64,000 nucleotides of DNA from Candidatus Gastranaerophilales bacterium (GTDB lineage: Bacteria > Cyanobacteriota > Vampirovibrionia > Gastranaerophilales > JAILCC01). The notes below the pieces were generated by a model. That model had not been told where the DNA came from, did not search any database, and saw nothing but the letters and a program-made list of their open reading frames with translations. Positions 14,171 through 15,129 of this stretch are shown piece by piece. Location: the NCBI GenBank assembly GCA_028696075.1, contig JAQVHS010000001.1, positions 194,408 through 258,407 on the forward strand. Reading direction: 5' to 3'. The translations under genes were made by a program, and so were the position numbers. Each line of letters begins with the position of its first letter. Within the stretch, counting starts at the first letter, position 1.

Positions 14171-14197
14171 TAAAGGTTTTTTTCAAAATGCCGATAA
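14171..14197 (+). promoter_or_regulatory. sigma-28 (FliA/SigD)-type promoter
   Basis: TAAAGGTT-N11-GCCGATAA matches the consensus TAAAGTTT-N11-GCCGATAA in 15 of 16 positions with exact spacing. Ends 35 nt upstream of ATG 14233. Confidence 0.7.
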
Positions 14198-14232
14198 CCT
14201 AAGTACAAGTTAATGAAAAAGAGGTCAGGACA

Positions 14233-15129
14233 ATGGGTTTATCAGCCAGTCAAACAAGATTTTTATGCTTAACTGCAAGACAAACGAACGTAGAATTCCA
14301 AGGTCAACAGGTGAACCAGGCAAGAACTGCTTTGGCTAACCAATCAGCTGATTTATATTCCCAATTAAATCAACTCAGACCGCCAACCACTCCTTCTATG
14401 TATACTTACATTCTTAATCCTCCAACTTTTCCAAAATTTGATTGGAGTAATCCTACAGCATTTCCTGCAGATCAAACATCAATGGATAATATGTATTTGT
14501 ATTATGCAGGTTCTGCACCGACATTTACAGACTTCAATATGCCTCTATACGATGAGGAAAGCGGCAAAGCAGAGCCTAATAAACCTTATTGTACTTACAA
14601 AACAGGTTATGATTCAAGCGGAAGTAAAGTACAATTTTTAGCACCTGTAGTTGATGAAAATGCTAACTATACCTGGGACTCTGAGACAGGAATATTTGCA
14701 GCTAAAAACGGTACAGATGAACTTCCTGCTTATGTTCAAGCTTACAACTATGCAATGTCTGCGTGGAAAACATTCTCCAACGTAAAAAGCAGCGCAATTT
14801 ATGATATTAAACCAACCGATGAAAATATGAAAGCAGATGAACCTTCTGACAGACCGCAGCAAATAGCATCAGGATTCAGTAAAACTGTAGACAAAAATCA
14901 GGCTCAGTATTCTGCGGCAATGGTTTTATACGAAGCAGATTCACAAGAATATGAATTAGCTTTGGATCAAATAAATGCAAAAATAGAAGAAATCCATCAA
15001 TCGGATAAAACATTAGAATTACAATTAAAACAGTTAGATACAGAACAACAAGCAATTCAAACCGAAATGGATGCTGTTAAAAAAGTTATCGACAAAAATA
15101 TCGAACAAACTTTCAAAACTTTCGCATAA
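14233..15129 (+). CDS. hypothetical protein: helical Gln-rich N- and C-termini, Pro/Tyr/Thr/Asn-rich centre
   Basis: AGAGG RBS. 298 aa. N-terminus MGLSASQTRFLCLTARQTNVEFQGQQVNQARTALANQ. C-terminal heptad-like LELQLKQLDTEQQAIQTEMDAVKKVIDKNIEQTF. No family recognised. Followed by a terminator. Confidence 0.6.
   Translation: MGLSASQTRFLCLTARQTNVEFQGQQVNQARTALANQSADLYSQLNQLRPPTTPSMYTYILNPPTFPKFDWSNPTAFPADQTSMDNMYLYYAGSAPTFTDFNMPLYDEESGKAEPNKPYCTYKTGYDSSGSKVQFLAPVVDENANYTWDSETGIFAAKNGTDELPAYVQAYNYAMSAWKTFSNVKSSAIYDIKPTDENMKADEPSDRPQQIASGFSKTVDKNQAQYSAAMVLYEADSQEYELALDQINAKIEEIHQSDKTLELQLKQLDTEQQAIQTEMDAVKKVIDKNIEQTFKTFA

Follow-up and report, generated by a model that had tools for sequence, protein, structure and literature searches.

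A sigma-28-type promoter and a multi-copy protein family with conserved terminal helices in Gastranaerophilales

The stretch of DNA analysed in this study (the window, 64 kb in total) comes from a metagenome-assembled genome (MAG) of Candidatus Gastranaerophilales, which are uncultured, non-photosynthetic relatives of the cyanobacteria living in human and animal guts. The gene under study encodes a protein of 298 amino acids (aa), here called P0001, and is preceded by a promoter of the sigma-28 type (Table 1). The protein was found to belong to a large, clade-specific and multi-copy family without homology to known families. An earlier note on this DNA, made from the letters of the sequence, had pointed out the promoter and a domain layout resembling that of flagellin, and every factual statement in it was borne out on re-reading.

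Table 1. Coordinates of the gene under study, of its promoter and protein regions, and of neighbouring genes in the window
Feature	Position	Strand	Basis or remark
Gene for the 298-aa protein P0001	14233-15129	+	NCBI MDD3593203.1, PHX18_01090, 'hypothetical protein', Candidatus Gastranaerophilales MAG
-35 element, sigma-28-type, TAAAGGTT (consensus TAAAGTTT)	14171-14178	+	Direct sequence reading
Spacer between both octamers, 11 nt	14179-14189	+	Sequence reading
-10 element, sigma-28-type, GCCGATAA	14190-14197	+	Sequence reading, window scans, orthologs
-10-to-ATG stretch, 35 nt, contains the short 5' leader	14198-14232	+	Sequence reading
Conserved N-terminal helix, residues 2-47	14236-14373	+	AlphaFold2 model; mean pairwise identity 69%
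Hypervariable central globular alpha/beta insert, residues 48-220	14374-14892	+	AlphaFold2 model; mean pairwise identity 20%, many gaps
Conserved C-terminal 77-residue helix, residues 221-297	14893-15123	+	AlphaFold2 model; mean pairwise identity 57%
Intrinsic-terminator-like hairpin and T-run	15162-15189 (hairpin 15162-15183)	+	9-bp stem with 4 GC pairs, 32 nt past the stop codon
Fmt-like formyltransferase gene	13088-14080	+	Pfam Formyl_trans_N and Formyl_trans_C; 152 nt 5' of the 298-aa gene
FliI/YscN-family type III export ATPase gene	17761-19116	+	TIGR01026, 546.6 bits (cutoff 379.5)
CheR gene	26035-26859	-	Window neighbour
Double-CheW-domain protein gene	51038-52060		Window neighbour

The promoter and its distribution

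When the promoter was compared with the consensus used here for the FliA, SigD and WhiG (sigma-28) factors, TAAAGTTT-N11-GCCGATAA, it agreed in 15 of the 16 positions with exact spacing, TAAA and GCCGATAA being 15 nt apart, and the sequence of this region was read directly as ctTAAAGGTTtttttcaaaatGCCGATAAcc. The Shine-Dalgarno (SD) sequence GAGG is present at 14221-14224, 8 nt ahead of the ATG at 14233. Direct reading and the scans of the window have confirmed what the earlier note had stated about the consensus match and its distance of 35 nt from the start codon, as well as about the open reading frame (ORF) with a good ribosome-binding site and its own terminator. On both strands of the window TAAA-N15-GCCGATAA occurs only once, against a chance expectation of 0.03, and at least one occurrence was found in 3 of 100 shuffled windows (mean 0.03). 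In a 16-position scan of the whole window every other site scored 13 or less. As an element the promoter is of a common kind, although unusually clean and conserved. No gene for the sigma factor itself is present in the window, and a tblastn search with E. coli FliA returned none from the window or from ~1 Mb of related loci.

The earlier note had made its proposal depend on the promoter match being kept upstream of orthologs, and it is kept. All five orthologous loci (the window, L001, L002, L086 and L087, with protein identities of ~44-50%) carry TAAAG(T/A/G)TT-N11/12-(G/T)CCGATAA at 35-41 nt before the ATG, so that sequence, spacing and distance are all preserved. For the wider family, only TAAA and GCCGATAA (12 positions) were scored within 120 nt upstream of each gene. 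A score of at least 11 was obtained for 29 of 100 family genes and of at least 10 for 47 of 100, as compared to 4 of 383 control genes scoring at least 11, two of these four being partners of the family in the gene module described below. The GTTT which follows TAAA in nearly all the positive sites was not scored, yet the extended TAAAGTTT recurs upstream of the homologs.

The neighbourhoods of the family were studied in 80 related loci out of at least 523, with flanks of ~1 Mb in total. On both strands of this sequence, 30 of 44 strong sigma-28 sites are placed 32-50 nt upstream of family genes, a distance that is kept across the family, and the remaining sites mostly precede the cluster 2/cluster 3 pair of the same module or two other unknown genes. 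The first or solo copies of the family carry a strong match in 30 of 78 cases and a moderate one in 20 more, and only 3 of 21 copies situated directly after another copy have the promoter. In the short paralog P0038 from the window's own MAG, and in some others, a sigma-70-like TTGACT-N17-TAAATT takes the place of the sigma-28 motif. The paralogs are divided between two promoter classes, and a FliA-type regulon clearly includes this family, whose sigma-28-type promoters would be recognised by a FliA-type sigma factor.

Some further observations were made on these upstream regions. A sigma-70-like promoter, 'ATCATTAAAT', was seen in a class of short, 180-aa paralogs (e.g. L084:225-253), which is very conserved, its middle region included, and also ahead of second tandem copies (e.g. 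L005:6001). Besides the SD GGA, many family leaders contain ..A(T/A)AGGAAAC.. at ~25 nt before the ATG (L009, L020, L022, L032, L036, L038, L060, L076-L078 and others), and two GGA motifs were counted in the leaders of 24 of 100 family genes and 25 of 384 controls, a comparison that is confounded by miscalled start codons among the controls. Double-GGA leaders recall the CsrA sites in the flagellin leaders of bacteria having FliW and CsrA, and CsrA-type control of the family genes may be taken as a weak lead. Two further unknown proteins with no family match (L005:603-1484, L012:530-1397 and, on the minus strand, L026:6829-7368) have strong sigma-28-type promoters (13-15 of 16) and are both candidates for additional members of the regulon. 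One of them has ~271-275 aa and begins with MNIKGVSAYSF, and the other is a Ser/Lys-rich coiled-coil protein of 179 aa.

The family, its architecture and its likeness to known proteins

A database clustered at 90% identity contains 1291 homologs of the protein, the family has at least 2277 clusters at 50% identity, and its loci in species-representative genomes number at least 523. Of the 80 loci listed, almost every one is assigned by its label to Gastranaerophilales or Melainabacteria, and the others bear names such as 'Clostridium sp. CAG:967' and 'Brachyspira sp. CAG:484', which we take to be mislabelled. The members are named only 'hypothetical' or 'unknown' in the source records, and their lengths vary from 143 to 861 aa (143-753 aa for the full-length members in the identity sample). 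Each genome has at least two copies, such as P0001 and P0038 in the MAG of the window, and copies often stand in tandem pairs.

No match for the window protein was obtained in Pfam, NCBIfam or PHROG, in agreement with the earlier note, which had seen no flagellin, FlgK, FlgL or FliD motif. Ten relatives and the partners of the module gave sub-threshold coiled-coil noise only (PI3K iSH2; FliH PRK06800, E 0.008; Paraflagellar_rod, E 0.008). Profile searches against the sequences of the Protein Data Bank (PDB) with family and partner alignments gave nothing meaningful, and a description of the family was not found in the literature. For one homolog, P0006 (333 aa), the precomputed annotation lists PF28159.1, but nothing was found for it when Pfam-A was scanned locally. 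A phage origin was rejected, as no relatives are present on IMG/VR viral contigs.

The architecture of the family is that of conserved ends and a variable middle, and both the alignment and the AlphaFold2 models have upheld this part of the earlier note. The identities in Table 1 were calculated over residues 1-47, the middle and residues 222-298. In an alignment of 36 members, the invariant columns are confined to residues 5-34 or 240-297, those of the N-terminal part being A5, Q7, R9, A15, N19, E21, G24, Q25, N28, R31 and L34. The Met-Gly start is invariant in the family, and the C-terminal helix carries the motif ...INAK.E.I...DK.LEL.LKQLDTEQ.AIQTEM.AVKKVIDKNIE.TFKTF. The central insert accounts for the range of lengths, and no signal peptide or hydrophobic N-terminal segment was seen on direct reading of the protein sequence.

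The AlphaFold2 model of the window protein (pLDDT 92.6, pTM 0.77) shows one helix from residue 2 to 47, a mixed alpha/beta middle and another helix from 221 to 297, as the earlier note had foreseen for both ends, and that of the 180-aa paralog P0038 (pLDDT 91.1) shows helices at 3-47 and 104-179. Judging from the secondary structure and the pTM of the models, it appears that the terminal helices come together as a long antiparallel coiled-coil hairpin with the insert at its turn. The earlier note had proposed that structure prediction be used to look for a hairpin like the D0/D1 domains of flagellin. The predicted terminal helices are consistent with a hairpin, and the models contain no D1-like region and give no significant fold match. 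The Foldseek search returned nothing significant (best E 0.03). Its weak matches, with template-modelling (TM) scores near random for the relevant targets, share two long terminal helices plus an insert, and include the gamma subunit of ATP synthase, subunit D of the V-ATPase, flagellins, FlgL, NheA, colicins, Tc toxins, chemoreceptors and SMC proteins.

The topology is the flagellin idea, with the termini together and the variable part at the turn, yet the protein is not flagellin, and the likeness is in design and regulation only. As in FliC and Hag, a sigma-28-class promoter with a short leader precedes a protein lacking a signal peptide, conserved terminal helices enclose a hypervariable domain, and several divergent paralogs are present per genome, some of them with promoters of other classes. 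On the other hand, the conserved N-terminal part spans ~47 aa, whereas that of flagellin spans ~140 aa; there is no D1 domain, members are as short as 143 aa, the family is confined to one order, and its genes do not stand beside fliD, fliS or flaG. The identity as a flagellar axial protein suggested by the layout has found no support, since no link of sequence or fold to such proteins was found. Neither Pfam nor NCBIfam gave a match to the flagellin domains (PF00669/PF00700, D0/D1), the PDB search with the family profile was empty, and hhalign of the family against FliC plus Hag gave a probability of 0.26%. The models have one long N-terminal and one long C-terminal helix where the D0/D1 fold of flagellin has four helices, and the Foldseek matches to flagellins had E of 0.04-0.7 and TM of 0.16-0.21.

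Other protein classes were likewise found to differ. Hidden Markov models of the hook-associated and cap proteins (FlgK, FlgL and FliD) gave no match, the family is multi-copy, and the neighbours that were tested are unrecognisable. Among the ClyA/Nhe/Xax toxins, NheA was reached with E of 0.23-0.25 and TM of at most 0.26, and a match to XaxB was seen only for the mini-paralog of the module (E 0.006, 16 bits against a cutoff of 40). The central stalks of F- and V-ATPases, with FliJ-like proteins, supplied the top Foldseek matches, but their scores are weak (E of at least 0.03, TM 0.15-0.23), and membership in this class was set aside on account of these scores and of the hypervariable insert and multiple copies of the family.

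EspA/SctA and SctF are small helical-hairpin subunits that need no signal peptide for export and form polymers through the terminal helices, the EspA type being antigenically variable. The gene order of the module found beside relatives of the window gene recalls the arrangement espA-espD-espB/escF, with a filament-like protein, a hydrophobic partner, a small basic protein and a hairpin of ~100 aa as the possible counterparts. The family, however, shows no sequence or fold match to these proteins, no injectisome genes were seen, and its promoter belongs to the flagellar class. The EspA-type resemblance may thus serve as a lead only.

Partner genes and possible function

In the window, the conserved partner of the gene is the Fmt-like formyltransferase gene. 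Its product is similar to Met-tRNA formyltransferases in the fold, the catalytic HPSLLP motif and the C-terminal domain, and it aligns with them over 260 residues (best PDB matches, E ~1e-29 to 1e-30). Its NCBIfam fmt score of 154.2 is below the cutoff of 201.5, and the basic tRNA-binding loop of Fmt (RPxGRGKK) is replaced by SVSLPLWVQFFKNWF, with no Arg or Gly there. Due to the loss of the tRNA-recognition loop and the score below the cutoff, the enzyme may act on a substrate other than Met-tRNA. The five orthologous loci have no genes in common except this one and the family gene. The spacers between the two measure 149-165 nt and the outer flanks differ, and hence a functional unit of the two is plausible; the earlier suggestion that the formyltransferase gene could belong to the same unit gains support from this. 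The two genes may form separate transcription units, the promoter lying in the spacer.

The window copy is a solo gene without module partners. A module of three further genes comes after one or two family genes in 24-44 of the 80 related loci. Cluster 1 is a protein of 273 aa in which a Gly/Ser-rich region is present and an amphipathic C-terminal helix comes after a conserved, hydrophobic segment rich in Gly, cluster 2 is a basic protein of 90 aa, and cluster 3 is a helical protein of 107 aa. The last is a mini-paralog of the family, homologous to its last 49 residues (hhalign 95.5%). No family or PDB match was obtained for clusters 1, 2 and 3. P0038, the short paralog from the MAG of the window, has a cluster-1 gene after it. 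A kinship of cluster 1 to the family through a shared 'LDT..VKK..I' was also considered and is unsupported (hhalign 2.4%). Examples of the module are at L005:4747-8777, L069:4858-8124, L084:297-1709 and ~40 other loci, and clusters 2 and 3 have a sigma-28-type promoter of their own in the preceding spacer (e.g. L069:7323-7349, 16 of 16).

The FliI/YscN-family ATPase gene lies 2.6 kb from the 298-aa gene, between tmk and an HD-domain (YhaM-like) gene, and the window scan found no sigma-28 site upstream of it. Within 10 kb of some family copies there is a FliI gene (the window and L052), a gene for a stand-alone FlhA C-domain protein (L086) or CheA/MCP/CheW genes (L087; MCP, methyl-accepting chemotaxis protein). 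A tblastn search of the window and of the ~1 Mb of flanks of the related loci returned no canonical flagellin from these sequences.

Published genome surveys disagree whether Gastranaerophilales are flagellated. Complete flagellar sets are present in ~25% of the genomes (PMC4040986; bioRxiv 10.64898/2026.04.24.720558), and the other genomes keep flhB, fliI and flgG, for which a secretion role has been 'postulated' (PMC4040986; bioRxiv 10.64898/2026.04.24.720558; PMC5877343). Canonical flagellins were reported in the four Melainabacteria genomes analysed (PMC3787301), and the family is therefore not simply 'the flagellin' of these bacteria. No entries for fliA or flagellin are present in the Di Rienzi supplements. 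In the non-flagellated Chlamydia, sigma-28 is kept alongside orphan fliI, flhA and fliF (PMC10597470).

Partial flagellar sets in most genomes together with a sigma-28-type regulon liken the order to the reduced flagellar export systems without a filament that are present in Buchnera, with its basal bodies, and in Chlamydia. To our knowledge, no dedicated, abundant and multi-copy family of substrates with a flagellin-like design has been described for these. The window promoter resembles sigma-28 promoters elsewhere in its exact spacing and kept distance to the start codon as well as in its sequence, and in non-flagellated Legionella a promoter of this class drives non-flagellar genes.

We tentatively favour, with somewhat less than even confidence, the reading that the protein is a late member of the sigma-28 regulon which would be exported and would assemble with itself, as an analog of flagellin or of the EspA filament and not as a member of their families. 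Transcription by the sigma-28 holoenzyme would start a few bases past GCCGATAA, and the short leader with its strong SD would lead to high expression. The protein would then leave the cell via the flagellar-type type III apparatus retained by the order, a route that is proposed because the protein is without a Sec signal and FliI is encoded 2.6 kb away. Outside the cell, its conserved terminal helices may bundle with those of other subunits and of the paralogs, the termini being buried and the variable insert exposed, by the same design logic as in the D0 and outer domains of flagellin or in EspA-type filaments.

Several facts weigh against this proposal. No sequence or fold link was found to EspA or the needle proteins any more than to flagellin, the hook-associated proteins or FliD, and the long two-helix hairpin is a generic fold, present in cytoplasmic proteins too. 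A good sigma-28 match is missing ahead of around half of the family genes, some of which have a sigma-70-like promoter instead. No fliD, fliS, flgK/L or flaG was seen among the neighbours examined, of which only a sample was run against Pfam. Moreover, sigma-28 of Chlamydia drives the non-flagellar hctB and tsp, and for this reason neither a flagellar role nor export follows from a sigma-28 promoter (PMC10597470).

An intracellular coiled-coil scaffold, regulator or sensor of the sigma-28 regulon, whose insert would bind ligands or partners and which would be expressed together with motility or late-stage genes and never exported, seems unlikely to us. The sole fold resemblances of the family are to generic antiparallel coiled-coil hairpins, namely soluble chemoreceptors, SMC arms and the gamma/D stalks, all of them non-significant; sigma-28 regulons elsewhere do contain cytoplasmic proteins (PMC10597470), and no export chaperone gene was recognisable nearby. 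Against such a role, hypervariability of the insert along with several divergent paralogs per genome is typical of exposed proteins subject to diversifying pressure and atypical of cytoplasmic scaffolds, no match to MCPsignal or another cytoplasmic domain was obtained, and the TM-scores to the gamma/D stalks are at random level.

It is rather improbable that the protein is a secreted toxin, effector or adhesin, in which a coiled-coil stalk would carry a variable receptor-binding head as in the ClyA/Nhe/Xax or colicin-like proteins, acting with cluster 1 and co-regulated with motility. Control of haemolysins and lipases by the motility regulon is known in Xenorhabdus and Yersinia, the hydrophobic Gly-rich segment and amphipathic helix of cluster 1 would suit such a complex, and weak matches were seen to NheA (Foldseek probability 0.5), to colicins Ia and E3, to Tc-toxin helices and, for the mini-paralog, to the alpha-xenorhabdolysin subunit B of NCBIfam. 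However, these matches are all non-significant (E > 0.03; TM no higher than 0.35 where the target is relevant), many family genes, that of the window among them, stand alone with no partner, and strongly conserved terminal helices that pair are more in keeping with a self-assembling protein than with a monomeric toxin.

It is very unlikely that the protein is a genuine flagellin which has diverged to an extreme degree and forms the flagellar filament itself. The layout, promoter class, multi-copy status and absent signal peptide are held in common with flagellin, and many Gastranaerophilales sets are reported as 'incomplete' by standard annotation. The profile comparisons given above speak against it, as do the short conserved N-terminal region without an equivalent of D1, the shortest members, whose 143 aa are far under any flagellin, and the canonical flagellins reported in gut Melainabacteria (PMC3787301). 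Finally, a fortuitous promoter match, with read-through from the formyltransferase gene or a sigma-70 promoter serving instead, can be practically dismissed: no terminator was found on the plus strand between 14080 and 14170 and a weak sigma-70-like site (9 of 12) is present at 14097-14124, but the chance expectation is very low and the position of the motif is kept in five orthologs and dozens of paralogs while the spacer sequence diverges.

The exported, self-assembling protein that we favour can be extended, as an unlikely but consequential possibility, to an unrecognised extracellular appendage or secreted complex formed by the family and its partners with flagellar-type export under FliA control. 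Such an appendage would explain the 'incomplete' flagellar sets in most genomes of the order and would provide a hypervariable surface antigen peculiar to these uncultured bacteria of the human gut, and the dedicated Fmt-like formyltransferase would modify the window-group protein or its glycan. The family is a concrete candidate for the product or substrate of the flagellar machinery which around three quarters of the genomes keep as a subset. Should the protein prove to be exposed, phages would probably target its insert, which would also be a major antigen of these bacteria, and the family would be an independent instance of the polymer design in which conserved terminal helices carry a variable insert. 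Even under an ordinary reading, a sigma-28 consensus and the first members of its regulon have been defined for the order.

Other features of the window and related loci

The neighbours named in the earlier note, namely the FliI-type ATPase, the CheR- and CheW-like genes and the formyltransferase, are all present in the window, the remainder of which consists of housekeeping genes. The ATPase gene is solitary, with no fliH, fliJ or other flagellar gene adjoining, and its score falls just under all three FliI-clade equivalog cutoffs and under the SctN equivalog cutoff. The double-CheW protein gene directly follows a gene for a response regulator with a GGDEF domain (49566-52060), and the same pair adjoins MCP and CheA genes in L087. 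In L086, 7 kb from the ortholog of the window gene, a protein of 485 aa (L086:1215-2672, minus strand) corresponds to FlhA in its cytoplasmic C-terminal domain alone (FHIPEP profile positions 300-655); this is preceded by an unrelated N-terminus of ~100 aa, and a membrane domain is absent.

Downstream of the terminator, the ~0.9 kb at 15184-16105, up to the gene for the electron transfer flavoprotein (ETF) alpha subunit, is filled with repeats; no ORF in it is credible, and Rfam and Pfam gave no match. The ETF alpha gene (16106-17092) has no recognisable ETF beta gene upstream, the repeat-filled gap being in its expected place. That the gap is a disrupted etfB was considered and rejected on account of the repeats and the empty Pfam and Rfam searches. 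A unit of ~127 bp is present there in ~3 tandem copies (15530-15931), and a direct repeat of 36 nt occurs at 15318-15353 and 15453-15488. An element of 139 nt (15191-15328) has an inverted counterpart at 12650-12787 (91% identity) and a further one, with 74% identity, between two tandem family genes at L049:5703-5850, and shorter copies of the repeat are seen near 53177-53547, 42044-42089 and 19953-19999. The 139-nt element and its copies look like a family of dispersed intergenic repeats or of elements similar to miniature inverted-repeat transposable elements.

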